The notes under the pieces were generated by a model that saw only the letters and a list, made by a program, of their open reading frames with translations, searched no databases and was not told where the DNA came from. Positions 19,815 through 59,267 of a DNA stretch of 64,000 nucleotides are shown here, one piece after another. A program made the translations under genes and the position numbers. Each line of letters starts with the position of its first letter. Positions within the stretch are counted from its first letter, which is position 1. The stretch lies in assembly GCA_965215265.1 (NCBI GenBank), contig OZ244048.1, positions 2,304,001 through 2,368,000 of the forward strand. The letters run 5' to 3'. The stretch comes from Candidatus Poribacteria bacterium (GTDB lineage: Bacteria > Poribacteria > WGA-4E > WGA-3G).

Positions 19815-19816
19815 TC

Positions 19817-20243: not shown

Positions 20244-20245
20244 GA

Positions 20246-20914: not shown

Positions 20915-20925
20915 ACGGTGCATCG

Positions 20926-21050: not shown

Positions 21051-21059
21051 ATTTTATCT

Positions 21060-21413: not shown

Positions 21414-21456
21414 GGTGTCGATCTTCCGTAAAGTACAAGCGGTGATGCGATTGCAT

Positions 21457-22606: not shown

Positions 22607-22680
22607 TTTGTGTTTTTGTCTATTTCCGTACCATCAACGCTTATGTCGTGGGTACTCGTGTGTAAATCTCATTTTTTTAT
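22607..22680 (-). repeat. Right arm of the MITE-like repeat overlapping the wzi-like stop codon
   Basis: Reverse complement of 22621-22670 is identical to 18611-18660. Confidence 0.85.
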
Positions 22681-24301
22681 ACAAAAAGCTGATGTAAAGT
22701 GCGAGATGGTACTCGGTGTGTGTTTTGTCTAGGTGATGTCCCCGGTTTCGGATAGTCTGCCATGCATAGCGGAGGCTGGCATTCCACGATGCCAAGGGAC
22801 GATAAGAGATGGTCCCGCCGATTCGGGTGATATATTCGACAACGCCAGTGGGGAATGGGAGAGCTTTGAAGTCTTCGCCATAAAACCGGTCTGCTACGGT
22901 GGCTTCGCCGTTTCGGGTTAGGTTGGCTGTGAGGGCGGTCTTAGTATCTGGTGTCCATTGGTAAGAGAGAGAGAGGTTGAAAGTGTCGGCATCTGTTCCG
23001 ATGGGATGTCCGATGATGTGTCCGAAGTGCGTGAATTGATTTTCCGGGACAAGGTGTGTATAAGCCCATCGATTGACGCGGGCGTATTCTGTGTGAATGC
23101 CGAGTTGTCGTCGGAGTTTGTCGGGGTACCACGTCACGCCACAGAGCCATGCGACAGCGTGCGGGTCGTTTGCCCCGGGTACGTATTGTAAATCGTCAAT
23201 GAGCCACTCGGCATAGAGGCGCAAGCCGTCAACGGGACGGACAGCGACATCCAAAGCGAACATGACATTATCGTCGGCCTTGGCATTATATTGCAACGCA
23301 TAGTAAAAGGTGACGGGATTTGCATATTTGAAATCGAGTGTTTGTGCATCGCCGCCGTAGAGTACCCATTCACTGAGCCCGATGTTAAGCCGGTCGAAGT
23401 GTTGGTACTCAAGCCGATGTGCACTCAGATAGCGTTTGGCGAGGTAACGGGTATTACCGTCATCGTACCAGGTAGCATCGAGTTGTGTAGTGAAGGCGGT
23501 GGCTTTGAACCTGCCGAATGTGCCGGTGAGACGTAGCATGTCAAACGGTGGGGAATTATCGGAAATTCCGACGGAATATTGTGGTGTCGCGCCCCAAAAA
23601 ATTGCATCTCTGCCTACCAATAGTCTGAGTCGCTCATTGTATGTAGCCAGCTGCAAATAGCCGCTTTTGACGTTTCCGGTATATCCGCCCCGCCAGGGTT
23701 CCAAACGTTGTTCGGCGGTTTTGCCTTTAGCAAGCGTGGTAACATCTTGCCGGTGAAAATCTTCAAAATTTTGGAATTCACACTCGGTGTAAATTGTTAG
23801 GTTTCGGTATTGAAAGTGAAAAGCGCCCTCAAGTGCTGGGGCGATTTTTTCTTGCGTGGCACGTAGTTGAGGGAGCACGGCGAGTTCGACGTTTTCACTG
23901 CCAAACATCGGAACCCTCCGACGAGATGTACACAGTGATTCACAATGTGTCAGGGGGTGTAGGGCTCCAGTATCCGAAAATCGGTGTGCGAGTTCTGTGT
24001 GAAACTCGCGTTTTAACTTTTCAAGGAGCTTCCTATCGATCTCGGAAAGTGAGCCGGTGTGTGCACGACTCCGTTTCTCAGCATGTTGGATGATGCGTAC
24101 AATCTCTGTGCGTGAGTATGGGGCGGTGTGTCGATGGAACCCTCCTGTGATGCCATCAGTTTCCAATTTTGCGAGTGCTTCACCGACCCAACCATCAAAG
24201 TTAAGCGGTGGATGGGGGGCAGCGTGCAGAGCGGTGAGATAGCAGAGGAGGATCACGGTGGCTGTGCCAAAGATATCTAGCGCTTGTCGTTTTTTTTGCA
24301 C
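22634..24301 (-). CDS. Capsule assembly Wzi-family outer-membrane protein
   Basis: GRD..FWG, SDN.PP.D, SAHRLE, DN, LYAEWLIDD, IGHPIG motifs; GTG start with GGAGG RBS (ORF track extends to 24352). Confidence 0.7.
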   Translation of the reverse strand: MQKKRQALDIFGTATVILLCYLTALHAAPHPPLNFDGWVGEALAKLETDGITGGFHRHTAPYSRTEIVRIIQHAEKRSRAHTGSLSEIDRKLLEKLKREFHTELAHRFSDTGALHPLTHCESLCTSRRRVPMFGSENVELAVLPQLRATQEKIAPALEGAFHFQYRNLTIYTECEFQNFEDFHRQDVTTLAKGKTAEQRLEPWRGGYTGNVKSGYLQLATYNERLRLLVGRDAIFWGATPQYSVGISDNSPPFDMLRLTGTFGRFKATAFTTQLDATWYDDGNTRYLAKRYLSAHRLEYQHFDRLNIGLSEWVLYGGDAQTLDFKYANPVTFYYALQYNAKADDNVMFALDVAVRPVDGLRLYAEWLIDDLQYVPGANDPHAVAWLCGVTWYPDKLRRQLGIHTEYARVNRWAYTHLVPENQFTHFGHIIGHPIGTDADTFNLSLSYQWTPDTKTALTANLTRNGEATVADRFYGEDFKALPFPTGVVEYITRIGGTISYRPLASWNASLRYAWQTIRNRGHHLDKTHTEYHLALYISFLYKKMRFTHEYPRHKR

Positions 24302-26391: not shown

Positions 26392-26955
26392 TTTTTTTGT
26401 ATCTCTCCGTTAAGAATTGTCCCTGCCAGCGGGGCGAATTCTTCCATCAACGCTTAGGTATTGATGACTCGTGTGTAGATATTGTTTTTCGTATCTCTCC
26501 GTACCGTCAACGCTTAGGTATTGATGGCTCGTGTGTAGATATTGTCGGAGGTGCCTTAGGTTTAGTCTTTTAAATCAGAACATATTTGTATATTTCAGCC
26601 CGATACCGCTCTATGTTATGATTTTTCGTATCTCTCCGTACCATCAACGCTTAGGTATTGATGGCTCGTGTGTAGATCTCGTTTTTTTGTATCTCTCCGT
26701 ACCATCAAGGATTATGTATTGTTAATGCCTATGTACATCTCGTCTGAGATTCCTTAGGTTTTGACTTTAAAGACGATACCTAGAGCGGCTCAGGCGAGAT
26801 TTATAAGGGTTTTAACATTGCATCCGCCTTGATTGCGCTCTTGTAGACAAAAAAACGAGATTTGTGCTTAGGTTATCAAAACATAGATTGTTGACGTACT
26901 GAACTGGACGAAAAATCAAAATATAGACCTTTGTTGTGGTGCATTGGACGAAAAT
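26392..26955. repeat. MITE-like composite repeat with ~60-bp tandem units
   Basis: ccatcaacgcttaggtattgatggctcgtgtgtagat ... tatctctccgta present three times, plus other family motifs. Confidence 0.85.
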
Positions 26956-28262
26956 TAGGTTTTTTGTTTTTTTTTGCGTGCTGCGGGAAACAAGATGTTG
27001 TTCAAAATGAGGCGATAGCCGGGCGAATGTTTGTGCAAATCGAGGTTCGTGGGGATTTTGCCTTCTCCGACTAAGTGGCGATAGTCCTCCGGGTCGTGTC
27101 CGCCGAGGAAAGTAAAGGTGCCTTTGCCTAATTTTCCGTGTATATATTTTGCGTAGTTGGTGCCTTCAATCTGCCCTAAAATGGTGACGGAACCCCGGAG
27201 CAAATCCATATTAAAAGATGTGGTCTGCCCAAGGAAACCGGGTACCACATTCACATGATTTTGCGTGAGCATAGTAGGTATTGGATGGTGTTTTGCGGCA
27301 AATTCAAAAAGTGCGAAGTCTTCAACCCCGCTCTGTGCATCTCTATCAGGCTCAGGATTGTCTATATCTGAGAATTCGTATCGGTATGGATTTGTGTAGA
27401 GCGTAAAATTCTCAAAAGCCAAGGTGCGCTGTGCTTTGAAATTCTGTGCGAGCCGTGTTTGGAAATCGCCATCAATCGGTGTTCCATCAAGTTCAGGTGC
27501 GACGATGTCAATCATTCCGCCGCGTGTTGCTAATGCAATATCCAAGGTTTCCGGTGCGGAGCACATTGCGAAAACAAAGCCGCCGTTAGCGATGTAGTCC
27601 GCTATCATCAATGCGGTTTGTCCTTTGTATTTCGGGACACTTGAAAAGCCAGCCTCTGCAGCGGCTTTTTCAAAGAGGTGCATCCGTTGCTGATACCAGA
27701 CCTGCCTAGAAAAGGAGGCATGAAACTTTCCGTGCTGTCCAGTGAAGTCTTCGTGGTGCAGATGCAACCAGTCGTAACCTTGCGTCTGTAGTACGCCGCT
27801 CTGTACTTCTTTGTCCCAGAGTTCGTCGTAGGGGATCTGTGCGTAATCGAGTGCGAGCTTAACTGCGTCGTCCCACGGGTCACGGTATGGCGACTTCTCT
27901 GCAGGGGCGTATACTGCGATTTTGGGTGCTTTCTCTAAGCGGATCTCGTCCATATTATTGGCCTGTAGGACGGTTTCTTGGATACGGTTGTAGTCCGCGA
28001 TGCTCATCGGCTCAAAAAGGACACCCATGAAGGCTGCACGGGTTCGTACATCTTGGGAGTCCGGCAGCACGAAGGCACCGCCTCGGTAGTTCAACCACCA
28101 ATAGCATCTATATTCGCGTGGTGGGGCTAACGCCCAGTATGTCAAGCCGTAGGCTTTGAGATGATTGGTTTGCCCGTTTTGTTCCATTGGGACTAAAAGC
28201 CACTGTGCAACGGCTGGGACGCTGCAAATGGAAAGATAGAGGACGATGATGAGTTTTTTCAT
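26955..28262 (-). CDS. Secreted glutamine-amidotransferase-like protein (family often labelled 'asparagine synthetase B')
   Basis: Signal peptide MKKLIIV; NHLKAYG, WWLNYRGG, PWDDAV, LHHEDFTGQ, GGHDPEDY, GYRLILNNILFPAA. Confidence 0.65.
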   Translation of the reverse strand: MKKLIIVLYLSICSVPAVAQWLLVPMEQNGQTNHLKAYGLTYWALAPPREYRCYWWLNYRGGAFVLPDSQDVRTRAAFMGVLFEPMSIADYNRIQETVLQANNMDEIRLEKAPKIAVYAPAEKSPYRDPWDDAVKLALDYAQIPYDELWDKEVQSGVLQTQGYDWLHLHHEDFTGQHGKFHASFSRQVWYQQRMHLFEKAAAEAGFSSVPKYKGQTALMIADYIANGGFVFAMCSAPETLDIALATRGGMIDIVAPELDGTPIDGDFQTRLAQNFKAQRTLAFENFTLYTNPYRYEFSDIDNPEPDRDAQSGVEDFALFEFAAKHHPIPTMLTQNHVNVVPGFLGQTTSFNMDLLRGSVTILGQIEGTNYAKYIHGKLGKGTFTFLGGHDPEDYRHLVGEGKIPTNLDLHKHSPGYRLILNNILFPAARKKKQKT

Positions 28263-28505
28263 TTTTTTGTATATCTCCGTACCGTAAAGGTTTAGGTTGT
28301 GGTTAATCCAATGTTGGCAGGTAAGGTATGGCAGGGTTCGGTTTTCTTGCCATGAGACAAAGAATACCTTATCCCTGCCCCCTATAGGTTCTTGTCTCTC
28401 CTGCAAGGAGAGTGGCGAGATTTGTACAGGATTTTTCATAGCAATCGCCTTTGTTGTCCTGCAGTAGACGAAAAACTTTATTGTCCTGCAGTAGACGAAA
28501 TTGCC
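28262..28505. repeat. MITE-like repeat with nested tggcagg-type element
   Basis: tatctccgtaccgtaaagg, ggcgagatttgtac and two copies of gtcctgcagtagacgaaa. Confidence 0.75.
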
Positions 28506-31354
28506 GGTGCCTGCCCGAATACAATCTGTCCGTTGTGCATTAATGGGGTTTCACTGGTGCCGGGGTTCTGGATATCCACGGACCAGAGTTGTCCGTTGTT
28601 TTCATAAAGTATCCAACGGCCGGCAGGCGGCATCCACACTGGATGTCTGCCGCCGTACTGGGTTAACTGCTGTTCGGTTCGGATGCCTGTGTCTGAATAC
28701 ATAACAAGCCAAATCTGTGATGGTTCTTCTTCAACCGTTCGCGTGAAGGCGAGTTGATTCGGATTTGCCGGAGACCAGGCAGGTTCTGCATCCTGGGCAG
28801 GGGAGATAACAATCGGTTCGATACGCTTTGTCAAACTGTCGAAGGCGTAGATATTCCGTTTTGCAGTGGTATCTGGGTTTTCAATTGTGCCTTCTGTGAC
28901 ATAGGCCAGTAGGCTACCGTCGCGGTTCCATGCAGGGTTGAAACTTTGCAGTGCGGTTGAAGGCACGGTGAAGGTTTGATTGCTGGGAAGGTGTTGAATC
29001 ACAATCAACCGTCGGTTGGTTGGCCCGGTTTGTGTATAGGCGACATAGTTTGCATCCGGTGAGATAGCGGCATCACGTGCAAGATGGCGTGCGTCCAGTA
29101 GTATGCGGCCGTCGGGTGAAACAGAGTCGTGAAGGATGAGATTGCCGTCGATATCTTCATAGAGCAGCGTCCCATCAGCAGCGACAGTTGGATTGGTGCC
29201 GGCGGCGATAGCAGTGATGCCTGTGTCAGCAGTGAGACTCCATAGGACACCGTCATAACCGAAATAGGTAAAGATGCCGTCTGTTCTTAAGAAATCCTCC
29301 GGTGTGCTGTTTAGCGGAGCGTTGCCGCCATCAATGGTGTGCAAATCCGGTGGTTTTTCGATTTGTGCGGTTTCGGCTTTTTGTATACTAGAGCCCCACA
29401 ACGCCCTAGGTTGTGTCAATGACTGTGAAAATCTCGCCTGAGATTTTCTAGGTTTTGCATCCGAAAGGGCTGCTGCGGAGGGCTGAAACTGCTCGGCATC
29501 AATAAATTCCCATCCGGCACCTGTCGTCCGCCATCGAAACCCGAGTCCTTTTGTCCAATACTTCCATTCTTCGTTCCGCTGTCCATTGCGGTTAATAGTG
29601 AAAACATCCTCGGGTTCTCCGTATCGCCGTCGAATTTCCCAGCGTCCGCCATCCATAATTTCTGTCAGTGTGCCGGCTTCATCAATATAGGTTGCGAACA
29701 TTTCTATATCAATATGCGAAGTGGTGTGCCCGGGTAAGACAGTGACAGCAATAGGCTCACCGCGCACCGGGAAACGTGTGCCATAAAGTCCTACGTTGTC
29801 TGTGAGCCCTGTGGTACCGTCGTTATTCTGGTCAAGTACTGCCATGGCGTAGTAACGTCCAGGCAGCACGTGTATGTGGTAACGCCCGTGCTCGCTGAGT
29901 GTAATAGGGATGGGGAGGGGTGATTGGAAGTCAGGCGTGTAAGAGAGACTGATAATTCCTTGCGTGCGTGCTACGGGTTTCCCATCGGCGAGGAGTCTTC
30001 CGGAGATGCTGCCGTGTTCAATGTGTGTTTCAATGCCGGGTGGTGCGGGGCGGAGTTGGCCATCAGCATCATAGCGTGCAGTGATAAGGATATCAACCGT
30101 GCGATCGTCCGTGCTTTTGGATTCAGTCAGAACAAACGGGGTTGGCGGGTGCATGCTCATATCTAAGGTCCCATATCCGCCGACACCATCACCTTCGCTG
30201 TATCTGCCATTTTTATCGGCATCGAGATTGGCGATGAAGTAATACTCGCCGGGTGGTAAGGCAAGCTGGAACGTTCCGCTCGGATGCGTCTCTGCACTTG
30301 CGAGGGGTGTGACTAAAGTCGGTTGAGCGTAAACTTCAACGCGTGCTGTGATATCAGTGCTGTCGGTAGGCATCGGAGATACTGTACCGGTAAGTGCAAC
30401 CCGTGTCTGGTTTTGTCTATTTGTATCTGATGGATACGTGTGAGTGATGGCGATGTCCACATTTTGGGTGAACCGGTTCTCTGCAATGAGGATAGGCTGC
30501 GGTTTGTTATGTGCGTTTTTCAAAAAGGGTTTTCTTGCCGTGCTAGTTGAAGTCCTACCGTTGCGGCTGTGAGGTGTATCAATGCCGTAGAAACCGAACG
30601 CATCGCCAGCATCGAGCTTATTGGTGTGGTTGTTGTCGATAATAGCCATCAGGTAATATTTTCCGGGTGGTAAGTTAAGGGTCCATTCGCCGGAGTCTGA
30701 GACGCGCGTCATAGCGGCACGGTATTTCCACGTAATATCCGTATATGCAAGAACGAGGGCTTGTGCACCGTCATGGACGCGTCTCTGAACGCGGAGATGC
30801 CCGTGGCAGCCACTAGTAACTTTACGCAGTTCACTCTGAAACTGTTGAAATTCGCTATTTTGGTATTCGGAAATCGAGACAATTTTAAGTTCACCGTTGA
30901 CCTCACCGGCACGTGCAGTAATAGGTATCTCTAATCCACCGATGCGTTCTCCGTCGCGTATTTCGAGGAGTTGCTGCTTTTGGGCGGTAGAAACCCAATT
31001 AGTAATTCCGTAGATACCGAGCCCATCTCCGGTATCAAAATGTCCTGACCGGTCGACATCAACGTACGCAACGAGATAGTAGCGGCCTGGAGCAACACGG
31101 AGTAGGAATTTACCGGCTTCTTGTTGTGGAATACCACTGACGTAAAGTTCCGTTAGCGCCTCATCCCGATAGACGGAGACGTTTGTGTTTGAGAGATCTT
31201 GCCCTTCCCAGATTACTGTTCCTTCAAGTGTTGCTGTCATCTGTTTTCCTACCTGGGTGTCTATCAAGGGTTTCGGCGAAGCTTCTTGTGATAGTGCAGC
31301 ACGCATATAGGAGCTAAGGGACATCATTAACAGAACCAGCAGCAATCGTTTCAT
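28478..31354 (-). CDS. Large secreted protein: four Ig-like/DxDxDG repeats + TolB/PD40 beta-propeller
   Basis: Four PG.YY..A..D.D.(S/N)G....GD..G.YG repeats; ISPD, PAWNRDG, PAWSP WD40-like repeats. Confidence 0.7.
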   Translation of the reverse strand: MKRLLLVLLMMSLSSYMRAALSQEASPKPLIDTQVGKQMTATLEGTVIWEGQDLSNTNVSVYRDEALTELYVSGIPQQEAGKFLLRVAPGRYYLVAYVDVDRSGHFDTGDGLGIYGITNWVSTAQKQQLLEIRDGERIGGLEIPITARAGEVNGELKIVSISEYQNSEFQQFQSELRKVTSGCHGHLRVQRRVHDGAQALVLAYTDITWKYRAAMTRVSDSGEWTLNLPPGKYYLMAIIDNNHTNKLDAGDAFGFYGIDTPHSRNGRTSTSTARKPFLKNAHNKPQPILIAENRFTQNVDIAITHTYPSDTNRQNQTRVALTGTVSPMPTDSTDITARVEVYAQPTLVTPLASAETHPSGTFQLALPPGEYYFIANLDADKNGRYSEGDGVGGYGTLDMSMHPPTPFVLTESKSTDDRTVDILITARYDADGQLRPAPPGIETHIEHGSISGRLLADGKPVARTQGIISLSYTPDFQSPLPIPITLSEHGRYHIHVLPGRYYAMAVLDQNNDGTTGLTDNVGLYGTRFPVRGEPIAVTVLPGHTTSHIDIEMFATYIDEAGTLTEIMDGGRWEIRRRYGEPEDVFTINRNGQRNEEWKYWTKGLGFRWRTTGAGWEFIDAEQFQPSAAALSDAKPRKSQARFSQSLTQPRALWGSSIQKAETAQIEKPPDLHTIDGGNAPLNSTPEDFLRTDGIFTYFGYDGVLWSLTADTGITAIAAGTNPTVAADGTLLYEDIDGNLILHDSVSPDGRILLDARHLARDAAISPDANYVAYTQTGPTNRRLIVIQHLPSNQTFTVPSTALQSFNPAWNRDGSLLAYVTEGTIENPDTTAKRNIYAFDSLTKRIEPIVISPAQDAEPAWSPANPNQLAFTRTVEEEPSQIWLVMYSDTGIRTEQQLTQYGGRHPVWMPPAGRWILYENNGQLWSVDIQNPGTSETPLMHNGQIVFGQAPAISSTAGQ

Positions 31355-35683: not shown

Positions 35684-35894
35684 AGCACCACGCTCTATAT
35701 TATAGCAACCCACCAGAATTGCGGTTTGGAGCCAAACATCTGAAGTTGCGATATGAGCCGTTTTCACGAAAAAAAGGCTTTTGTATTGTCTGAACGCAGT
35801 CGGCGTCTACGCTCACGAAAACCTCTCGTGAAACTTTTCGTGAATTGGAGACTTTGGAATCAAATGTCGCCTCTTTCAGCACAGCAACCCCTGA

Positions 35895-36045
35895 TGTTTT
35901 GAGCTGTCGTATCTCTCCATACCATAAAGGTTATCTTTTGCTAATACCCGATTATGATTCAATACATCGAATGGCTCTGGCGAGGTTTGTAAAGCACTAA
36001 ACATAACAACTGCCTTTATTGGACGAAAAGAGACGAAAACCTTTC
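35895..36045. repeat. Degenerate copy of the MITE-like repeat
   Basis: cgtatctctccataccataaagg, ctctggcgaggtttgta, ttggacgaaaa. Confidence 0.6.
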
Positions 36046-49624: not shown

Positions 49625-50062
49625 ATGGCTAAGTACGTAGTTGCAACTCCAGACGAAATCCCGCCCGGTGAACGTAAAATTGTTGATATCGGGGGGCGTT
49701 CCATCGGCATTTTTAATATTGACGGCGAATACTTCGCCATCCGGAACAGCTGTCCACACCAAGGTGGCCCGCTGTGTAAGGGGCACGTCACCGGCTTCTT
49801 AGAATCCCCTGCACCCGGAACCTATAACTATATCCGCAAGGGCGAATTTCTACGCTGCCCGTGGCACAATTGGGAATTTGACATCAAAACCGGACAGTCG
49901 TGGTGGAACCCCACACAGCGACGCGTCCGAAAATACGATGTCCATGTAGAGAGCGGAGAACAGATTGAGGCTGCCACGTCCGAACCAGAAAAAGGACCTT
50001 ACCGGGCAGATACGTTTCCTGTCACCGTTGAACAGCAGTACCTCGTCATTGAAATTGGGTAA
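49625..50062 (+). CDS. Rieske (2Fe-2S) ferredoxin
   Basis: CPHQGGPL ... RCPWH.WEF. Confidence 0.92.
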   Translation: MAKYVVATPDEIPPGERKIVDIGGRSIGIFNIDGEYFAIRNSCPHQGGPLCKGHVTGFLESPAPGTYNYIRKGEFLRCPWHNWEFDIKTGQSWWNPTQRRVRKYDVHVESGEQIEAATSEPEKGPYRADTFPVTVEQQYLVIEIG

Positions 50063-50234
50063 TCTCAAGCGTTTTTTGTCGTATAATTCATGTTAATCGG
50101 AATCAGGACGAGAATCTTCCGAAGGTGACGAAAAAAAAGTGCGAAAATGGCTTGACTATTAATCCGAATTTGTGCTAAAATCGGTAATAACAGTGGAAAA
50201 CTTGCTTTCTCTCAATTTTTTTTGCAAAAAAAGG

Positions 50235-50305
50235 TTGACAATTTTGTAATTTTGTCGTATAATTCATGTTAAAAGGTTGACAACTTTGTAATTTTGTCGT
50301 ATAAT
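50235..50305 (+). promoter_or_regulatory. Two tandem consensus sigma70 promoters (42-bp duplication)
   Basis: TTGACA-N17-TATAAT at 50235-50263 and 50277-50305. Confidence 0.8.
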
Positions 50306-50351
50306 TCATGTTAATCGGAATCAGGACGAGAATCTTCCGAAGGTGACGACC

Positions 50352-50555
50352 ATGAAAATCACGCACGCAGAGCTGCACATCAACAGAGCGATCGGTTTCT
50401 CCGTGATACAACGCGGCGGCACCCCAAACGGGGCTGCGTCCTGCTTCGCTGCTAAGGCAGCGTCGCGATATGGTGATTACGGCTACTTCACATCTGTTCA
50501 CTATACTCCGATTACCCCCCCCCTTCAAATTTTCTATTTTGTAACAAATCGTTAA
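50352..50555 (+). CDS. Short hypothetical / leader ORF containing a C9 tract
   Basis: AAGGTGA RBS then ATG directly downstream of the tandem promoters; no recognisable domain. Confidence 0.35.
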   Translation: MKITHAELHINRAIGFSVIQRGGTPNGAASCFAAKAASRYGDYGYFTSVHYTPITPPLQIFYFVTNR

Positions 50556-50923
50556 ATATAGAACTTGACAGTGTCGGCACTTACTGTCGGCCTGTCTCTG
50601 TTGTGCCTGCACGTGCTCTCTCTCGTATGATGGGGCTCGCTGTGGGCTCTTTCTGTTGTCATGACTGTAATATGCGGACTCAATTTGATCTACTCAGAGA
50701 TCAAATTGGATATTGTCCGCTGCATGTTTTCCTGCCAACGCCACGGTTGCAACTGTTTCCATCGTTACCGTTTGATGAAAAATACGACAGCACCCGCACG
50801 TTGGCAGCTGTTTTTAACTGGAGTCGGCGTAATCTCTTTAACATATGCAGAGGATTATGCTGAAATATTCTGTCTGATTCTGAATTAGACAGTAGGCTAG
50901 TGACAAACTAAAAGGAGTTTACC

Positions 50924-51250
50924 ATGCTAACTTGCAGATTAGTCCGAATCGTATGCCATAAGCAAGAGGATTGGACCGGCGACGATTCTCCGTACATCAA
51001 GATTAACGGCGAGATCGTCTGGGGTCCGAAAGATATGGATGCCGGACAAACACGCGAAATTCACCGTGGTTACCAATTCCTTCACCGGGCTAAGGTAGTC
51101 CTATATGAGGACGATGCCTGGGATGAGGATGATTTCCTTGGTGAACACGTTCTTACACGAGCAGATGTAGGCACAGGGCTCCAGGAGTTGGCGTTCAGAG
51201 AAGATGACGCTAATTATTCAATATGGGTAGAGGTGCTCTCTAATCGGTAA
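50924..51250 (+). CDS. Small acidic hypothetical protein (C2-like beta sandwich)
   Basis: AAGGAG RBS; EDWTGDDSPYI, LYEDDAWDEDDFLG acidic loops. Confidence 0.65.
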   Translation: MLTCRLVRIVCHKQEDWTGDDSPYIKINGEIVWGPKDMDAGQTREIHRGYQFLHRAKVVLYEDDAWDEDDFLGEHVLTRADVGTGLQELAFREDDANYSIWVEVLSNR

Positions 51251-51415
51251 AAACGTCTCCATTCTCCGTTGCGGTGGGTGTGCCGAAGAGATTGGCAAAT
51301 GCCCACCGCAACTAACATCTCTGAAGTATACGTGGGCGGGGGGACACACTCTCTCGCCTCTACACAAAGTAGGGAACCCATGCCGTGGGTTCCCGCATCA
51401 AAAAGGAGGATTCCG

Positions 51416-53344
51416 ATGAAAAAAACAGTGATTTTAACAATCCTGACGTTACTGGGCGTGACAACGCTACTATTAGCCACTTCATCAGACAATCATCCGT
51501 CGCAATTGCGGATTACAGAGCCAGAGCCAATAACGCTTACAGAACCAGAGCCAATAACGATCCAGCGAATTCTCATAAACGGGTTGCGGCTTGATGGCCC
51601 GGGAATAGTGAAGTACCCTACTAATCAGCTGCCTGACACTGAAGATTTCGCGTGTTACGACGACAACACGTTCATCTTACTGGAGCAATACAAGCAAACC
51701 TGCGGTATCACCTGCGCAGAGATGCTTTTGCACTACTACGGCAAGAATGTCAGCGCGGATCAGATCTGGGATAAGGGCGGCATTTATAGCGTGGATACCG
51801 GTGCGTGGCCTAACGAGTTAGTGGCTGCCTTGAGCAGACTCGGAGTGGATGTAATCTTGGAGAAGAGGCCGGATAATTGGTGGAAAGCGCTTCACGGTTT
51901 ATTCTACCAAGTAGAGCAGAACCGCCCGCCGATCGTCTTGCTCCGTTACGGAAACGTGTACCACTATTCGGTCGTCGTCGGGTTTGATACCACTGGTGTA
52001 ACTGATAAAGTAAAAGGAATCCGCAATGTTATACTCGCCGATCCGCACAACGTTTACCGAATCATGCAGCTGAATACGTTCCTAAAAGTCTGGTCTTTAA
52101 AGACTTCCGAGATAGAACTACCGGGAGGCGGCTTTAAGGGGATGGTGAACAAAGGTTTGGTAATCGCTGTGAACACGAAGGATTATAGGTACGTGAGCAT
52201 CAATCCGAGGATGCAACCGCAGGAACATTTCCCCCCGAATTGGTCACAACTGAAAGCCGATATGATTATCGGAGAAAAGAAGGCCAACTGGACCCTTGGT
52301 TTTTTCTCTAGTGGAAAGCGTCACTGGGAGCGGACGTACAGATTCAAGCATCCCTTTAAGTCTTACAGCGTCTCGGCAATAGATCCGTTGCTATGGGAGG
52401 TACCATCCTCGTGGGGTACAAGTGGCTATATGCAAGGGCATGAGGCCAAGTGGGGGGATGACGGTGCACACAAGCTGAGAATCTGGGGTCGCATTGAGCA
52501 CGGGAAGGTAACACGTGGGCATTTGTGGGTCATGGTCCGCACCTACCGGAACCGTAAGAAGGAAACCTTCCCCGCAGGCATGGCACTCATCCCCGCAGGC
52601 ACCTTCCAGATGGGCAGCGAGGATGCTGATGCCCGGGATAACGAGCAGCCTGTGCATACGGTGCATGTGGACGCGTTCTATATGGATACGCACGAAGTGA
52701 CGAACGCCGAGTATAAAACTTTTGTGCTGGCGAACCCCGAGTGGCAGAAGGGGCGGATTCCGGATGCCTTCCACAGCGGTAAGTACCTAAACCGTTGGGA
52801 AGGTAATAACTATCCTTCGGGTAAGGCAGACCATCCTGTGGCGAATGTGTCGTGGTATGCGGCGATGGCGTATGCCGCGTGGGCGGGTAAGCGTCTTCCA
52901 ACGGAGGCGGAGTGGGAGAAAGCGGCACGGGGTGGGAAGTCAGGGTTAAAGTATCCGTGGGGAGACAGGATAACGGAGAAAGATGCGAACTACGATAGGA
53001 ATGTAGACGATACAACGGCTGTGGGGAGTTATGCGGCGAACGGATATGGGCTATATGATATGGCCGGGAACGTTGAAGAGTGGTGTCTTGACGCTTATGA
53101 TTCGGATTTCTATTCTGCGTCTCCGTCTAGTAATCCGCTGAGTGGTGTGTCTGGCAATACGCTCGCGAATCTGGATGAGATTGTAGATAACTATACAGGT
53201 GTTAAGTCTCCTCGCGTGTTGCGCGGCGGTAGCTGGGGCCATAATAATTCACATTACCTGCGCGCTGCGGATCGCGACTGGACTCCACCGACGACCACGA
53301 GCCTCGTCGACGGGTTCCGGTGTGCGAGGGCTGTCACGCCTTAA
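51416..53344 (+). CDS. Secreted C39-like cysteine peptidase fused to FGE-sulfatase (CLec-fold) domain; putative DGR target
   Basis: AAGGAGG RBS, signal peptide, Q...TCG..C..M...YYG / HYSVVVG / LADP; C-terminal RLPTEAEWEKAARG, DMAGNV.EW, RVLRGGSW...GFRCAR. Confidence 0.85.
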   Translation: MKKTVILTILTLLGVTTLLLATSSDNHPSQLRITEPEPITLTEPEPITIQRILINGLRLDGPGIVKYPTNQLPDTEDFACYDDNTFILLEQYKQTCGITCAEMLLHYYGKNVSADQIWDKGGIYSVDTGAWPNELVAALSRLGVDVILEKRPDNWWKALHGLFYQVEQNRPPIVLLRYGNVYHYSVVVGFDTTGVTDKVKGIRNVILADPHNVYRIMQLNTFLKVWSLKTSEIELPGGGFKGMVNKGLVIAVNTKDYRYVSINPRMQPQEHFPPNWSQLKADMIIGEKKANWTLGFFSSGKRHWERTYRFKHPFKSYSVSAIDPLLWEVPSSWGTSGYMQGHEAKWGDDGAHKLRIWGRIEHGKVTRGHLWVMVRTYRNRKKETFPAGMALIPAGTFQMGSEDADARDNEQPVHTVHVDAFYMDTHEVTNAEYKTFVLANPEWQKGRIPDAFHSGKYLNRWEGNNYPSGKADHPVANVSWYAAMAYAAWAGKRLPTEAEWEKAARGGKSGLKYPWGDRITEKDANYDRNVDDTTAVGSYAANGYGLYDMAGNVEEWCLDAYDSDFYSASPSSNPLSGVSGNTLANLDEIVDNYTGVKSPRVLRGGSWGHNNSHYLRAADRDWTPPTTTSLVDGFRCARAVTP

Positions 53345-53589
53345 ATCTTTACCCCTTTACCCCTTCCGAGCTGCACGCAGCTCGGGTCGATGCGATTTTG
53401 TGTTGATTTTGAGATGTGTTATGTGTTCCCTGTTGCGACAAGCGTGGGGAGATTGTCCGAACAAGCGCCGGTCCAACAGGGAAAATCAGATCTATTTTAT
53501 ATAAACAGTATGGACAATGCCGTGGATGCTCTTGAAGAGATTCCGGCATCCGTTAGCCGCGAGCGTTTCGCGGCATGTGGAGGTATCTA
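53345..53589 (+). repeat. ~245-bp intergenic unit repeated at 54442-54685 (first ~45 bp again at 55679)
   Basis: Near-identical sequence from aatctttacccc to ggaggtatcta. Confidence 0.9.
53366..53385. promoter_or_regulatory. GC-rich 8-bp/4-nt hairpin after the variable region (DGR-target hairpin candidate); copies at 54463-54482 and 55699-55718
   Basis: ccgagctg-cacg-cagctcgg, about 21 nt after each stop codon. Confidence 0.7.
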
Positions 53590-54441
53590 ATGTGTAATAA
53601 AAAAGTGTCAATGATGTTTGCAATATTGGTGTGTATGGTTTTGGGGTTAGGTGGTGTTGGCGAAGTGTCGGGACGACGGGCCCCCGAAGGTATGGTGCTC
53701 ATCCCCGCTGGCGACTTCCAGATGGGCAGCGACGATGCTGAAGCCGATGGTGACGAGCAGCCTGTGCGGACGGTGTATGTTGACGCGTTCTACATGGACA
53801 CGCACGAAGTGACGAACGCTGAATATAAAACTTTTGTGCTTGCGAATCCCGAGTGGCAAAAGACGCGGATTCCGGATGCCTTCCATGATGGTGGTTACCT
53901 ATGGGATTGGAGCGGTAATAACTATCCAGCGGGTAAGGGAGACCATCCTGTGAGGTATGTGTCGTGGTATGGTGCGATGGCATATTCCGCGTGGGCAGGT
54001 AAGCGTCTTCCAACGGAGGCGGAGTGGGAGAAAGCAGCACGCGGGGGGTTAGTTGGTAAGAAATACCCGTGGGGAGACACGCTAACGCCGAACGATGCGA
54101 ACTACGATACTGGCGGTACAACGGCTGTGGGGAGTTATGCGGCGAACGGGTATGGGCTATATGACATGGCCGGCAACGTCTGGGAGTGGTGTCTGGATGC
54201 GTATGATGCGGATTTCTATTTTCATTCGCCGTCTCGGAATCCGCTGAGTGACGTGAACACCATATCGAATCTGGATGAGATTGTAGATAACTATACAGGT
54301 GTTAAGTCGTCTCGCGTGTTGCGCGGCGGGAGTTGGTACGGTACTACTACGCGGACCCTGCGTGTCGCCTATCGCGCCGGGTCTCCCCCGACGTACTCGG
54401 GCAACATCGGGTTCCGGTGTGCGAGGGCTGTAACTCCTTAA
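53590..54441 (+). CDS. Secreted FGE-sulfatase (SUMF1/CLec-fold) domain protein; putative DGR target
   Basis: GGAGG RBS, signal/TM segment, canonical FGE motifs, variable C-terminus. Confidence 0.9.
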   Translation: MCNKKVSMMFAILVCMVLGLGGVGEVSGRRAPEGMVLIPAGDFQMGSDDAEADGDEQPVRTVYVDAFYMDTHEVTNAEYKTFVLANPEWQKTRIPDAFHDGGYLWDWSGNNYPAGKGDHPVRYVSWYGAMAYSAWAGKRLPTEAEWEKAARGGLVGKKYPWGDTLTPNDANYDTGGTTAVGSYAANGYGLYDMAGNVWEWCLDAYDADFYFHSPSRNPLSDVNTISNLDEIVDNYTGVKSSRVLRGGSWYGTTTRTLRVAYRAGSPPTYSGNIGFRCARAVTP

Positions 54442-54685
54442 ATCTTTACCCCTTTACTCCTTCCGATCTGCGTGCAGCTCGGGTCGATGCGATTTGTGTT
54501 GATTTTGAGATGTGTTATGTGTTCCCTGTTGCGACAAGCGTGGGGAGATTGTCCGAACAAGCGCCGGTCCAACAGGGAAAATCTTATCTATTTTATATAA
54601 ACAGTATAGACAATGCCGGGGATGCTCTTGAAGAGATTCCGGCATCCGTTAGCCGCGAGCGTTTCGCGGCATGTGGAGGTATCTA

Positions 54686-55678
54686 ATGTGTGATAAAAAA
54701 GAGTCAAAGGTTTGGAGGGCAGTAATGTCCCCTAAAAGTGTTTCAACAGTTTTGAGGTATATCCTGTCCGCTAAAAAAGTATCAAAGGTTTGGAGGGCTG
54801 TAATGACTAATAGAAACGTGTCAGTGATGTTAGCCATATTGGTGTGTATGGTTTTGAGTTTAGGGGGTGTTGGCGAAGTGTCGGAACAATCGGCACCCGA
54901 AGGCATGGTGCTGATTCCTGCCGGTGAATTCCAGATGGGCAGCAACGATGCCGAGGCCGATGTTGACGAGCAGCCTGTGCATACGGTGCATGTGGACGCG
55001 TTCTACATGGATACGCACGAGGTGACGAACGCCGAGTATAAAACTTTTGTGCTTGCGAATCCCGAGTGGCAGGAGGGGCGGGTTCCGGATGCCCTCCATG
55101 ATGGTTCCTACCTAAGGCATTGGGAAGGTAATAACTATCCAGTGGGTAAAGGGGACCATCCTGTGAGGTATGTGTCGTGGTATGGTGCGATGGCTTATGC
55201 TGCGTGGGCAGGGAAGCGTCTTCCAACGGAGGCGGAGTGGGAGAAAGCAGCACGTGGTGGGTTAGTTGGTAAGAAATACCCGTGGGGTGACACGATAACG
55301 TGGGGTGACACGATAACGGCGAACTACAATGATAATGTAGGCGGTACAACGGCTGTGGGGAGTTATGCTGCGAACGGATATGGGCTATATGATATGGCCG
55401 GCAACGTTTACGAGTGGTGTCTGGACGAGTATAATGCGGCATTTTATTCTGCGTCTCCGTCTAGTAATCCGCTGAGTGGAGTGTCTGGTAGTACGCTCGC
55501 GAATCTGGATGAGATTGTAGATGACTACACAAATGTTATCTCATCTCGCGTGTTGCGCGGCAGTGGCTGGGGCGATAAGGTTGCACGGGACCTGCGCGCC
55601 GCTGATCGCGGCTGGAATAGGCCGACGTCCACGGACCTCTACACCGGGTTCCGGTGTGCGAGGGATGTCACGCCTTAA
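54686..55678 (+). CDS. Secreted FGE-sulfatase (SUMF1/CLec-fold) domain protein; putative DGR target
   Basis: Paralog of the previous gene; alternative starts at 54725 and 54803. Confidence 0.9.
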   Translation: MCDKKESKVWRAVMSPKSVSTVLRYILSAKKVSKVWRAVMTNRNVSVMLAILVCMVLSLGGVGEVSEQSAPEGMVLIPAGEFQMGSNDAEADVDEQPVHTVHVDAFYMDTHEVTNAEYKTFVLANPEWQEGRVPDALHDGSYLRHWEGNNYPVGKGDHPVRYVSWYGAMAYAAWAGKRLPTEAEWEKAARGGLVGKKYPWGDTITWGDTITANYNDNVGGTTAVGSYAANGYGLYDMAGNVYEWCLDEYNAAFYSASPSSNPLSGVSGSTLANLDEIVDDYTNVISSRVLRGSGWGDKVARDLRAADRGWNRPTSTDLYTGFRCARDVTP

Positions 55679-55859
55679 ATCTTTACCCTTTACCCCTTCC
55701 GAGCTGCGTGCAGCTCGGGGCGCTGCGATTTTTAACAGTTAGTAAAAAAGTAGACTGTAAATCCATCCTTATGCCTCCTTTTATTTTTCTTATTTATAGG
55801 ATAGCATAAGGATGGAGTCCCTCACACGCAAAATCAACTCATTTCTTAGGAGAGTTTAC

Positions 55860-56723
55860 ATGAGATACATCTATAACCCCTTCCTAAAAAGAATCCCGTA
55901 CTTCACAATTGCGATAGGCTTATTGGCATCCATCTTCTGCTTTTGCACAGGGTGCATGAACCTCAGCACCGTCGGGCGAGCTGGGAATTTACTCATTGAA
56001 GAATTAAGCGATGTAAACATCTTCACTGACGCAGAAGAGCGCCAATTGGGGCAGGCGTTCGTCGCACAGCATGAACAGAAAATTACGCTTTACACAGACC
56101 CTGTTGTCACGGACTATATTAACACGCTAGGACAGTCGCTCGTGCGTTACAGCAAACGCAGCAATATCCAGTATACGTTTAAAGTCGTAGACACGAAAGG
56201 TGTGAATGCCTATGCGGTGCCGGGCGGCTTCATTTACGTCCACCTCGATCTTATCCGGGCGGCGAAAACGGAATCGGAGTTAGCTGCAGTGATCGGTCAT
56301 GAAATCGGGCATATTGTCGGAAGGCATTCCATGAAACGCCTCACCCAAGTCTACGGTATTGAAATCTTAAAACAGGTAATTTTAGATGAGGACTCAGGCC
56401 ATGTCAAAAAACTAATCACGGAAATCTTCGCGGCAGGACTGCTCTTTCGATACAGTCGTGATCATGAACGGGAATCTGATGCTTACGGAGTCCAGAATGT
56501 TTACGATGCCTGCATAGCTCCCGAAGGGGCCGTGGCGTTCTTTGAAACCTTACGTGCGATGCGTGGAAGGGAACCCTCTGCACTAGAAAAGTTTCTATCG
56601 ACACACCCAGTGCCGCATGAACGCGTCAGGAATGTGCGTAACCAGATTGCCGGATTGCCGCCGAAATCCGGGTTGCGGACCGATTCCTCGCGTTTCCGTC
56701 AAATCAAAACGCGCATTCGATGA
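55860..56723 (+). CDS. M48 family metallopeptidase (probable lipoprotein)
   Basis: VNAYAVPGG, HEIGH, YSR..E.E.D, FLSTHP. Confidence 0.9.
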   Translation: MRYIYNPFLKRIPYFTIAIGLLASIFCFCTGCMNLSTVGRAGNLLIEELSDVNIFTDAEERQLGQAFVAQHEQKITLYTDPVVTDYINTLGQSLVRYSKRSNIQYTFKVVDTKGVNAYAVPGGFIYVHLDLIRAAKTESELAAVIGHEIGHIVGRHSMKRLTQVYGIEILKQVILDEDSGHVKKLITEIFAAGLLFRYSRDHERESDAYGVQNVYDACIAPEGAVAFFETLRAMRGREPSALEKFLSTHPVPHERVRNVRNQIAGLPPKSGLRTDSSRFRQIKTRIR

Positions 56724-56889
56724 CGCGTTAAATTAGCGCAACTTCTGAGCCTAAAAACGCGAAAATTGTTTGATTCCGATGCAAATTTATGATAGACTAA
56801 AAAATAAGCACTCACAGTTCACGTAGCTACAGCACAGTGCATGCCGATAATTTGGGGAAAACCAGACAAAAGGCTAAGGAGGTTTAACA

Positions 56890-57732
56890 GTGAAAACAGA
56901 CCTAAAGAAATTAGCACCTTATTCTCCCATTATTGCAATAATCGGAGTCATCATCGCTATCTCCGTGGGCTTCTTTGGATTGGATTATACGAAGGTTGGC
57001 TCGCTTGTTTCTAAGCGGCCAGCCGGTCCGCCTGAACGAGATACTTTTCCGCCTGAACGAGATACTTTTTCTTGGAACTTGGAGAGTAGAAGGGCCGTTG
57101 AAAGCGAGGGAGGCACAGTTCAGGCTCCCGGCACCGACAATTTTGTCAAAGGAGAAAGCGCATGTGGCACCGGTTTTGTCAGTAAAGAAAAAAGTGATGT
57201 CATCATAATTCCGTTGAAGAGCGAATGGAAGGACCCGCTCACCAATATAACTGCCGGCACCGTTGAATTGTGCGTAACCCCCTTACAGGATATCAACAAA
57301 AGAGAAGACAACCTTTCTTTTTTCAGAGCCCCACCGATTGACGGCACGTTGGTCTCTTTAAAGATTGTTAGTATTGAACGAAAAACGCCAGAACTGCGTC
57401 TGCGAGTTAAGAAAAACAGTGGTGAAAAGGGGAGCGTGAAGAGCACATCCATCCTTGATTGGAAATCCGGGGAACATCACCACATCATCGGAACATGGGG
57501 TGCAGCAGGACTGCATCTATACATAGATGGTGAGCACGTAGCAGGGAGGACTGACTTTAAAGGCGGGCCCGAAAATCTTCATGGAGAATTTGTGATTAAC
57601 AATACCTGGCACGAGGATGAACCTTTTAAATCCCCAACGCATTGCATCGTCAGCAACGTTCGCATTTCTAACTATCAGTGGGGCGCAGCAGAAGTGAAAG
57701 CACGTTTTGAGGAACTCCATCCGACCGAATAA
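56890..57732 (+). CDS. Membrane-anchored LamG-like domain protein
   Basis: N-terminal TM helix; GTVE, W..GEHHHI..TW...LYIDG, VRIS. Confidence 0.7.
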   Translation: MKTDLKKLAPYSPIIAIIGVIIAISVGFFGLDYTKVGSLVSKRPAGPPERDTFPPERDTFSWNLESRRAVESEGGTVQAPGTDNFVKGESACGTGFVSKEKSDVIIIPLKSEWKDPLTNITAGTVELCVTPLQDINKREDNLSFFRAPPIDGTLVSLKIVSIERKTPELRLRVKKNSGEKGSVKSTSILDWKSGEHHHIIGTWGAAGLHLYIDGEHVAGRTDFKGGPENLHGEFVINNTWHEDEPFKSPTHCIVSNVRISNYQWGAAEVKARFEELHPTE

Positions 57733-57866
57733 GTGCCTTGCGAGTCGCTTCGCGCACGCCCTAGTTTCCATCACTTTTTGTTGGGCACGCGCCTTATAAC
57801 TGCCTATTCCCTTCTGATCTAATCAACCTTAGAATTCTGTCCATCCGCGATTCAGACAGTGACATA

Positions 57867-59267
57867 TCACGATGCCCTCTTCGCTGAAAACGGCAGCCAC
57901 ATGAAAACTGTGGTGCCTTTACCGACTGTGCTTTCAATTTCTACATTCCCGCCATGCTCTTCAAGCACCCGTTTAACATTGGCCAATCCGAGTCCCGTGC
58001 CCTTTGTTTTCCTCGTAAAGAAAGGTTTAAACAGGTGTGCGAAATCTTCCTTCGGAATCCCGTCACCAGTATCCGAAACCTTGATGCCGACCTTATCCGA
58101 GGCGTTGACGGTAGATACAGTTAGCGTCCCACCTTGAGGCATCGCCTCTATAGCATTCAAAACCACATTCATAAACGCCTGTTTGAGTTTCTCGGCATCA
58201 AACGGAATTTCTTGCAATTCCGTTGCAAATTCGGCGACTAACTGAATTTGATGATGAGCGAGGTTCGCTTCCATTAATGCCAAGACGGCTTGCAATGCAG
58301 GGGCGAGGGGCTGTTGTACCAGATTGAGAGTGGTAGGACTTGCGAAATCCATCAATCCCTTAACAATGCCGTCGATACGCTCAATCTCCTCAAGGATATA
58401 CCGTAAAGATTGTTGGCTGCGTTCTTCAGTTATATCGGTTTTGCGGAGGAGCATTTGTGCCAACATCCGCATTGAGGATAGCGGGTTTCGGATTTCGTGT
58501 GCGAAGGAAGCAGACATTTTCCCGGCCGTGGCGAGCCGCTCCGCTTGAACAAGTTTATCCCGCGATCGTTCAAGTTCTCGCGTCATCGCGTTAAATGCAA
58601 TCGCCAGATCGCCAATTTCATCGTGAGTTTGCACATCGCAAGTTTTGTCTAATTCCCCCGTCGCAACCCGTTTTGTGAATTCAACGAGCCGATTGAGCGG
58701 CACCGTTAAATTTCTGCCAATGAAATGGCTGATTAATCCGACTGCTGCCATCACCAGCACAGCGATACCGAACATATACAACGTGAGGATCCGTTTTGCC
58801 TCCGCGATTTTTTCCATAGGTCGCAATAAGCAGTAGAGCCGCCCCTGAGGCAGTAATAGATAAAAGACTTTGTAAGGTCTTTCTCCGAGCGTTACGTCTT
58901 GTGTGACAGGGCTGCCATCAGGATTCTGTAGCCGTTGTTTCACCGCAGCAAGCCGCATTTTTTCAGCTAAATAACCCCAATCGTTCTCTTCATCAGAGAG
59001 CCCGGGCACCGTGCTGGCGTTAAGTGTATAATCTGACCCGAAAATCATCACCTCCGCGCTATAAGCCTGCTTAATTTTTTCAGTCCCTTCCTGAATATAC
59101 CCTGTTTTGAGAATCACATCAAGCCACCCTTGGGTTTCACGCGTAAACTGCTCGCTGTACTTCCACGCGAAGAATTCAACCGTTATTAACGGGACGACAA
59201 CCGTGACAACCGCGAAGAGCAGCAGAAATGGAAGCACAATTTTGGTTTGAATGCCATATCGTCGCAT
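57867..59267 (-). CDS. HAMP-domain sensor histidine kinase
   Basis: Two TM helices, DEIG.LA..FN.M, AHEIRNPL, N..EAM, DTG.GI, GTGLGL. Confidence 0.93.
   Translation of the reverse strand: MRRYGIQTKIVLPFLLLFAVVTVVVPLITVEFFAWKYSEQFTRETQGWLDVILKTGYIQEGTEKIKQAYSAEVMIFGSDYTLNASTVPGLSDEENDWGYLAEKMRLAAVKQRLQNPDGSPVTQDVTLGERPYKVFYLLLPQGRLYCLLRPMEKIAEAKRILTLYMFGIAVLVMAAVGLISHFIGRNLTVPLNRLVEFTKRVATGELDKTCDVQTHDEIGDLAIAFNAMTRELERSRDKLVQAERLATAGKMSASFAHEIRNPLSSMRMLAQMLLRKTDITEERSQQSLRYILEEIERIDGIVKGLMDFASPTTLNLVQQPLAPALQAVLALMEANLAHHQIQLVAEFATELQEIPFDAEKLKQAFMNVVLNAIEAMPQGGTLTVSTVNASDKVGIKVSDTGDGIPKEDFAHLFKPFFTRKTKGTGLGLANVKRVLEEHGGNVEIESTVGKGTTVFMWLPFSAKRAS

Follow-up and report, generated by a model that had tools for sequence, protein, structure and literature searches.

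A putative exported C39-like hydrolase carrying a lectin-fold domain that has likely been rewritten by a remote diversity-generating retroelement in a Candidatus Poribacteria bacterium

The known targets of diversity-generating retroelements (DGRs) are mostly binders, such as phage tail fibres, surface lipoproteins, pilus tips and intracellular sensors. Remote targets, variable regions of the formylglycine-generating enzyme (FGE) type and enzyme domains grafted to DGR-diversified lectin-fold domains have all been published. In cyanobacteria, remote variable proteins carry an orthocaspase-like peptidase or a Ser/Thr kinase grafted N-terminal to a DGR-diversified lectin-fold domain; they are mostly predicted to be cytosolic, and a cruciform together with the initiation of mutagenic homing (IMH) sequence is proposed as the activating cis features (PMC7517822). 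In Thiohalocapsa PB-PSB1, DGR targets combine a CHAT protease, a TIR domain and a lectin-fold domain, the last of which is proposed to be the sensor (PMC10907252). Here we describe T1, a gene in a stretch of 64,000 nucleotides (the window; contig OZ244048.1, positions 2,304,001 to 2,368,000, of GenBank assembly GCA_965215265.1) from a Candidatus Poribacteria bacterium, which encodes a leader, a C39-like peptidase domain, a β-sandwich and an FGE-type lectin-fold domain with a variable region. We consider it probable that T1 is a papain-fold hydrolase exported by the Sec route, in which the lectin-fold domain picks the ligand and the binding end of that domain has been rewritten by a DGR. The coordinates of T1 and of its features are collected in Table 1.

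Table 1. Features of T1 and its two neighbouring paralogues, in window positions
Feature	Position	Strand	Description
Palindromic hairpin, 9 bp, in the 5′ leader of T1	51372..51394	+	~20 nt before the start codon; stem-loop listed on the minus strand
Shine-Dalgarno-like AAGGAGG	51403..51409	+	6 nt 5′ of the T1 ATG
T1 gene	51416..53344	+	642 aa
Sec-type signal-peptide-like leader	51416..51484	+	aa 1 to ~23; read from the translation
24-nt tandem duplication encoding TEPEPIT twice	51513..51559	+	Tandem Repeats Finder: period 24, 2.0 copies, 95% matches
Papain-fold C39-like cysteine peptidase domain	51626..52210	+	aa ~71-265; Pfam, conservation, model, fold matches, alignment to ComA and LahT150
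Conserved residues	Q91 51686-51688; C96 51701-51703; H183 51962-51964; D209 52040-52042	+	
Conserved β-sandwich domain	52226..52570	+	aa ~271-385; conserved with the peptidase in relatives; models
FGE-sulfatase-type (C-type-lectin fold) domain	52577..53329	+	aa 388-638; Pfam PF03781, E 9.8e-64
Stretch homologous to the template repeat	53208..53331	+	aligned to C1:1421030-1421150; variable core ~53237-53310
IMH-like homing-site sequence, 20 nt	53312..53331	+	GGGTTCCGGTGTGCGAGGGC; identical to that of the target beside the reverse transcriptase; template repeat has GCGAAGAC
G+C-rich hairpin, 8 bp, 4-nt loop	53366..53385	+	past the stop codon, 34 nt 3′ of the IMH-like sequence
T2, FGE-only paralogue	53575..54441	+	288 aa; own template-like region, changed at 23/36 adenines vs 5/82 other bases
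T3, FGE-only paralogue	54671..55678	+	335 aa; own template-like region, changed at 22/38 adenines vs 3/83 other bases; intact hairpin

The whole genome of 4,833,177 bases contains exactly one match to RVT_1, at C1:1420096-1420737 with 85.2 bits. It belongs to a DGR cassette at C1:1418066-1421150, 936 kb from T1 and outside the window, in which an FGE-type target, a 118-aa Avd and a 354-aa reverse transcriptase (RT) follow one another, with an adenine-rich template repeat (TR, 1421030-1421150) just downstream of the RT gene. Avd matches DivGenRetAVD NF033474 of NCBIfam with 120.2 bits (cut-off 80) as well as bAvd of Pfam, and the RT contains IGNLTSQ and YVDD, which we take to be hallmarks of DGR reverse transcriptases. 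Codon positions 1 or 2 hold 32 of the 36 in-frame adenines of the TR. When T1 is aligned to the TR, 20 of 38 adenines are changed versus 5 of 83 other bases (Fisher p = 2e-8, with a 3-nt insertion set aside), and the stop codon of T1 lies 11 nt beyond the aligned stretch. Inside the repeat there are four non-adenine mismatches, all of them located 5′ of TR position 62 and none 3′ of it.

The 3′ boundary of this stretch carries the signals of a homing target. All TR-like copies in the genome end with GCGAGGGC, where the TR has GCGAAGAC, so that GAAGAC in the TR stands opposite GAGGGC of the targets within the IMH-like site. According to work on phage BPP-1, a DGR target needs both the IMH and a downstream hairpin. 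The hairpin past the stop codon has the same distance and the same shape at T1 and at the RT-adjacent target, and it is conserved in T1 to T3; its arms are CCGATCTG and CAGATCGG in T1 and CCGAGCTG and CAGCTCGG in the RT-adjacent target, a compensatory double change that keeps the pair. Because its IMH-like sequence and hairpin match those of the RT-adjacent target, T1 is predicted to be competent for homing as far as cis signals are concerned. The match to the TR, the adenine-specific differences, the identical IMH-like sequence and the hairpin together identify T1 as a remote target of this DGR. Relative to the TR, many copies are longer by an in-frame 3 or 6 nt inserted at differing places within A-rich codon runs, for example at window positions 53237-53239 (the one insertion in T1) and 55579-55581 and in the RT-adjacent target (C1:1419155 region); they may come from slippage during reverse transcription. 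Since the RT-adjacent target has such insertions too, they are not the mark of a dead target.

Pfam assigns both Peptidase_C39_2 (aa 90-211, E 6.2e-9) and Peptidase_C39 (aa 89-227, E 4.8e-7) to T1, each above its cut-off. An AlphaFold2 model of aa 45-390, comprising the peptidase domain and the β-sandwich (together the enzyme unit), was built from 33 sequences, with a mean predicted local distance difference test (pLDDT) score of 86.0 and a predicted template modelling (pTM) score of 0.88, and its first domain has a papain-like fold. Foldseek finds 34 matches to this model in the PDB at E <= 0.001, of which the top ones are PCAT1, staphopain, Alr0975, a papain-like toxin and ComA. VIA-align, a fold search independent of Foldseek, gives Z scores from 15.2 to 13.6 across its first ten rows, with Alr0975 at 15.2, PCAT1 at 15.0, LahT150 at 14.9 and ComA PEP (5xe8_A) at 14.4, the last being superposed with a root-mean-square deviation of 1.9 Å over 130 residues. 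IdeS is also among the structural matches.

Gln91, Cys96, His183 and Asp209 are invariant in all seven of the closest sequences; in the set of 33 sequences the His and the Asp are invariant, and the Gln and the Cys are at least 90% conserved. A family profile alignment brings the four residues onto Q11, C17, H96 and D112 of ComA (chain 3k8u), which are presumably the oxyanion Gln and the catalytic Cys, His and Asp of that enzyme. The fold match predicts a catalytic triad geometry for T1, and proteolytic activity would be expected of it. The sequence-profile matches to C39 structures are weak, ranging from E 5.4e-5 (LahT150) to 0.02, with ComA at 0.003, and a single-sequence search with aa 1-390 against solved structures gave no match at E <= 10, so that a family profile was needed. 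ESM Atlas returned the same C39 and C70 folds for the enzyme unit, with a best score of 0.84 that is below the meaningful level. Classical C39 peptidases are leader-processing enzymes. Because Pfam detects no ATP-binding cassette (ABC) transporter domain in T1 or in 41 relatives scanned, the domain of T1 is better named C39-like (PF13529).

The β-sandwich consists of six to seven strands in the models, and in the relatives it always follows after a peptidase of this type. Pfam does not match it, even with the threshold relaxed to E 10. Modelled alone it reaches a pLDDT of 78.6; its best VIA-align Z score is 5.7 (AP1 mu, Helix pomatia agglutinin and phage tailspike ends), and Foldseek has no match for it at E <= 0.001. 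Its fold is accordingly left unassigned and is not taken to be a novel one. The FGE-type domain that comes next matches the variable protein of Treponema denticola (2y3c) with E 2.4e-10. In alignment to 6s07, SWGHNNSH--YLRAADR of T1 lies opposite SFLCHESYCNRYRVAAR, and both catalytic cysteines of true FGEs are absent; against 6s07, 5nxl and 6muj, the residues G-H-N-N-S-H stand opposite L-C-H-E/D-S-Y-C, and this segment is the variable region. The first-pass annotation, made from the nucleotide letters and their translations, had proposed a signal peptide, a TEPEPIT duplication, a C39/papain-like domain with a Q/C/H/D set, a β domain of ~120 aa and an FGE domain that has a variable region and lacks the Cys pair. 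All of these elements were recovered here: the basic n-region and hydrophobic core of a signal peptide are seen in the translation, the repeat was detected by program, and the domains are borne out by the matches, models and alignments described above.

To which partners is the enzyme unit joined elsewhere? A search of 1.84 billion representative proteins gave 85 matches to it at E <= 0.001 and 18 at E <= 1e-30, and the 41 of these that rank highest below the query itself (P0002 and P0008-P0047) were scanned with Pfam. Members of this C39-β family (P0002-P0047 and P0091-P0162) are 30-50% identical over aa ~50-385 and have the invariant residues in common. The 41 relatives carry WD40, LRR, Big_1 and dockerin domains, and most often the FlgD_ig or Por_Secre_tail domains of the type IX secretion system (T9SS). 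Only one of them, P0018 (579 aa), has the order C39-β-FGE; across its full length it shares 38% identity with T1, and its end resembles a variable region. In word-index searches, PF03781 was carried by one of the seven proteins around T1 (T1 itself) and by one of the 86 around P0018 (P0018 itself).

In a maximum-likelihood tree of the enzyme unit that keeps all 33 rows, T1, P0002 and P0008 form a group (100/100) within a clade of 11 rows (100/100), and P0018 falls in the other clade of 22 rows (100/100). The FGE label requires two changes on this tree, two of them forced by well-supported branches. Since T1 and P0018 sit in separate supported clades, the fusion to an FGE domain arose at least twice, or was lost several times. 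Within the phylum set, the enzyme unit is present in 40 of 176 genomes including our own, and one genus holds most of them (33/65). It is absent from G069, the only other genome of the genus of T1, and tblastn found no paralogue of it in the own genome at E <= 10 beyond chance-level matches. Of the 43 matches outside the own genome, 31 were inspected for a downstream in-frame FGE domain, and none has one. Genome contigs searched with the whole of P0018 gave 76 loci, mostly through their FGE domains (73 titled Poribacteria and three ‘uncultured bacterium’), and only L019 contained the C39-β unit; metagenome contigs scanned with the family alignment and with the T1 enzyme unit yielded no confirmed relative.

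These results suggest how T1 could work. The Avd/RT pair would copy the adenine-rich TR RNA with errors at adenines; the cDNA would then replace the variable region of T1, guided by the IMH-like sequence and by the hairpin beyond the stop codon; and the lectin-fold domain would thereby gain a new binding surface, by which the attached peptidase would be brought to a new ligand. That the lectin-fold domain directs the enzyme attached to it is supported by the habitual joining of the enzyme unit to binders (WD40, LRR and Ig-like domains) and by the gain of an FGE domain twice. One may go further and picture T1 as a working, re-aimable papain-fold hydrolase whose substrate choice is rewritable by the DGR, placed in the outward-facing repertoire of a bacterium of the sponge-symbiont type with surface display through T9SS-tailed neighbours, the independently arisen P0018 fusion then reflecting selection for joining the enzyme to a binder that can be diversified. 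We put forward this fuller picture only as a tentative possibility.

Several observations weigh against the reading of T1 as an exported hydrolase with a rewritable binder. The first come from sequencing runs. At least half of the words sampled from the T1 gene are present in five runs, and four of these (X3, X4, X6 and X7, from two studies) were compared as contigs, which lose rare variants; the runs may include the source sample of the assembly or be closely related. Each of the four has a contig covering 51416 to ~52663 with no difference from the reference. This contig spans the junction between the β-sandwich and the FGE domain (~52568-52585), and hence the fusion is not an assembly artefact. 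The variable region lies in each of the four runs on one 162-nt contig (53179-53340), also without any difference, and its depth relative to the unique N-terminal part lies between 0.87 and 1.31 (6.1 versus 6.7 in X3, 332.3 versus 254.5 in X4, 25 versus 26 in X6 and 6.9 versus 7.91 in X7). The comparable depth and the lack of differences mean that nearly every copy in these data sets has the reference allele, so that ongoing population-wide diversification is disfavoured by the contigs, with which rare variants are compatible. Skips seen at ~53236-53311 in the runs were considered as alleles of T1 and rejected, since their depth is that of a single copy and their flanks occur in all paralogues; they are read as belonging to other FGE genes.

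These data bear directly on the idea, also put forward in the first-pass annotation, that the targeting domain can be re-specified by DGR mutagenesis. The machinery supposed by that idea was found, as RT, Avd and TR exist and the cis signals of T1 are intact, but the cassette is 936 kb away and only one allele appears in the four runs. The comparison of C-terminal alleles suggested at the time came out on the refuting side, as far as contigs from two studies reach. Furthermore, the 3-nt insertion and the four internal non-adenine changes imply that the 5′ half of the variable region, or more, is not a fresh copy of the TR of today. An older 5′ part combined with a more recently replaced 3′ part fits this pattern, and a target that has gone quiet is also compatible with it.

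T1 could therefore be a once-diversified FGE paralogue into which homing has stopped, with the lectin-fold domain now acting as a fixed binder. The identical variable-region contig at full depth, the insertion and internal mismatches, the remoteness from the RT, the mismatched hairpin stem of T2 as a sign of decay in the T1-T3 cluster, and the 7 to 11 non-adenine changes in many other TR-like regions would all be accounted for in this way. On the other hand, such a fossil is not expected to keep an IMH-like sequence identical to that of the cognate target and a hairpin held intact by a compensatory change, or a 3′ half of the variable region free of non-adenine mismatches; the in-frame insertions are shared with the RT-adjacent target and so do not mark a dead one, and the contigs are blind to rare variants and derive from runs that may be closely related samples. 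Taking both sides together, we find a fossil target rather doubtful, and homing into T1 may still be occurring.

The second group of opposing observations concerns the destination of the protein. The reading frame of T1 is open over 51269..53344, and the ATG at 51416 is its likely start, homologue P0018 beginning at the equivalent MKK. The leader MKKTVILTILTLLGVTTLLLATSS has a basic n-region and a hydrophobic core without a lipobox cysteine; Pfam finds nothing in it at E <= 10. It is probably a Sec-type signal peptide, which would place T1 beyond the inner membrane. However, the T9SS C-terminal domain (Por_Secre_tail/FlgD_ig) that most relatives possess is absent from T1 in the Pfam scan, and so is a dockerin of the kind that relatives and other targets carry, for which reason T1 may stay in the periplasm. 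The word ‘secreted’, as used at first for this protein, is thus backed by the Sec-type leader and goes beyond it in so far as it implies release from the cell.

The third concerns the substrate. One relative out of 86, P0099 (870 aa), additionally carries an Amidase_3 (N-acetylmuramoyl-L-alanine amidase) domain, a hint that the enzyme unit may act on cell walls rather than on proteins. The papain-fold unit might then be no protease at all and act, for instance, on peptidoglycan cross-links or γ-glutamyl peptides, which would make T1 a retargetable cell-wall hydrolase or transferase; with regard to targeting, this alternative overlaps the reading that we prefer. It draws strength from two of the best structural matches, Alr0975 (phytochelatin-synthase-like, Z 15.2) and PeiR (a pseudomurein endoisopeptidase, Z 14.2). 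The closest sequence-profile matches, in contrast, are the double-glycine leader peptidases LahT150 and ComA, Pfam assigns C39 families, and the amidase domain occurs on that single relative. We regard a substrate other than protein as unlikely.

A last alternative takes the fusion as a joining of usual partners. In 25 neighbourhoods, reaching up to ~7 kb on each side and in some cases ending at contig ends, an FGE-domain gene lies near the C39-β gene in six, versus 9.7% of random windows of the same size in the own genome; Avd and RT of a DGR lie near it in two (G120 and G030, of different families and with different gene orders), and Avd alone in one more. Given a rough baseline and genomes that, being related, do not count as independent cases, this genomic link of the enzyme unit with FGE and DGR genes is only suggestive. 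That the C39-β unit processes, releases or attaches FGE-type variable proteins would agree with these neighbourhoods and with leader processing by classical C39 peptidases, but is very unlikely, given that 19 of the 25 loci have no FGE neighbour, that most family members lack an FGE partner and are joined to WD40, LRR or Ig-like domains, and that the leaders of T2 and T3 read from their translations are hydrophobic and of Sec type, so that both were rejected as double-glycine substrates.

The preferred reading, an exported hydrolase with a DGR-rewritten binding end, also has to be seen against the rest of the genome, where one TR faces 33 TR-like stretches in 26 open frames (two of them short fragments), T1 providing one of the 33. 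In total there are 52 FGE-type domains in 28 clusters. Among 15 other targets, Pfam finds dockerin, cohesin, PA14 or caspase domains, or two to three FGE domains per protein. T1 is accordingly a member of a large and mostly outward-looking repertoire fed by one TR. In several of the multi-FGE proteins each FGE domain has its own TR-like region, and one protein of 1139 aa (L009) combines a caspase (Peptidase_C14) domain with three FGE domains.

T9SS tail domains are found at 15 sites of the genome at E <= 0.001, and seven of these exceed the cut-off. A weak tail of this kind (21.9 to 24.3 bits, below the cut-off) forms the end of six open frames, each of 216 aa, at C1:1261339-1261599, 1561876-1562136, 1692335-1692595, 1792711-1792971, 3733672-3733932 and 4140473-4140733. 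Each of these frames is immediately followed by an FGE-type gene that has TR-like regions, and Pfam finds a dockerin in five of the six (all except L007). The 216-aa frame and the FGE-type gene look like a pair of anchor and cargo for surface display.

T1 is part of a block at 50064-57891, in which it is accompanied by a 108-aa open reading frame (ORF), T2, T3, an M48 peptidase and a Laminin_G_3 protein. G069 does not have this block, and its flanking genes are ~140 bp apart there. Its left edge contains two perfect σ70 consensus sites (12/12; 50235-50263 and 50277-50305, 42 nt apart) and a 58-nt direct repeat, whose copies at 50074-50131 and 50292-50349 are 100% identical and 218 nt apart; no other copy of the repeat exists in the genome. 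Rfam gave nothing on 49900-58000 at E <= 0.1. The hairpin of T2 (54475-54494) has the arms CCGATCTG and CAGCTCGG with one internal mismatch, whereas the stems of T1 and T3 are perfect, and T2 may be a poorer homing target. At the 5′ end of T3 (54676-54823), three copies of a 39-nt unit (64-76% alike) encode a repeated N-terminal extension. Elsewhere in the window, at 18430-29414 and 35874-35928, intergenic repeats of 40-90 nt (families D5-D10, D13, D15-D17 and D19) occur in both orientations and with irregular spacing, and they do not form a CRISPR-like array.

The region upstream of T1 has two further peculiarities. P0002 (408 aa), which has no FGE domain, contains 39 residues identical to the translation of the upstream leader of T1 (window 51299-51484); its signal peptide differs from that of T1 by one change, and the mature parts are only ~50% identical. 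The leader stretch thus seems, from these translations, to be common to different gene bodies. Directly upstream of T1, at 50924-51250, lies the 108-aa ORF of the block, which has no Pfam match at E <= 10, no NCBIfam match and no second copy in the genome, and which is 64% identical to an ORF of another Poribacteria record (L075:6562-6894), located ~1.5 kb upstream of FGE-type genes. A role as a staphostatin-like inhibitor was considered for it and is unsupported, as the ORF has no leader, no family and one homologue among the loci searched.

An exported hydrolase with a DGR-diversified binder, if true, would extend DGRs from variable recognition to variable catalytic targeting and would offer a natural model for retargetable proteases. 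With 52 FGE-type domains and 33 TR-like stretches in this genome, the ‘sulfatase-modifying factor’ domains annotated in the phylum are at least partly DGR targets and not sulfatase maturation enzymes.

The first-pass annotation knew of no described architecture of this kind. The order C39-β-FGE is indeed rare, being seen only in T1 and P0018 among the family members scanned, but the concept of a protease joined to a DGR lectin-fold domain had already been published, and the remote position of the target, which we also considered as a novelty, is equally known (PMC7517822). A literature search combining diversity-generating retroelements with C39 found no such protein in titles and abstract openings, and no paper was found that links Poribacteria and DGRs in this way. 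In a preprint on gut Bacteroides, proteases are mentioned only for pilus assembly and in the methods, and in PMC8144416, a global survey of DGRs, the words peptidase, protease, Poribacteria and sponge are all absent from the main text.

Through a comparison with the closest described systems, the particular features of T1 can be delimited. In TvpA of Treponema denticola (PDB 2y3c), too, the variable region closes an FGE-sulfatase-type domain at the C-terminus, and an Avd, an RT, a TR and adenine-specific differences are common to both; T1 differs in having an enzyme unit in front, in lying 936 kb from the cassette and in being one of 33 TR-like regions. The cyanobacterial targets resemble T1 in being remote and recognised by TR homology near the 3′ end (PMC7517822), but their peptidases are of the caspase fold (clan CD), whereas T1 combines a Sec-type leader with a C39-like domain of the papain fold (clan CA). 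The Thiohalocapsa proteins unite a protease and a DGR lectin-fold domain in one polypeptide as T1 does; they belong to an intracellular defence of the STAND or VMAP type with NTPases and adaptor domains (PMC10907252), none of which T1 has, and T1 looks exported. With the C39 domains of the ABC transporters ComA, PCAT1 and LahT, T1 has the fold and the Q/C/H/D positions in common, but it is devoid of transporter domains, has a signal-peptide-like leader and a family-specific β-sandwich, and is only weakly similar in sequence. Its own C39-β relatives have a FlgD_ig or Por_Secre_tail domain at the C-terminus and in many cases WD40, LRR or Big_1 domains as well, and the FGE end is found only in T1 and P0018. 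What is new in T1 is therefore the papain-like (clan CA) C39-type enzyme, in a probably exported setting, as the domain grafted to a DGR target.

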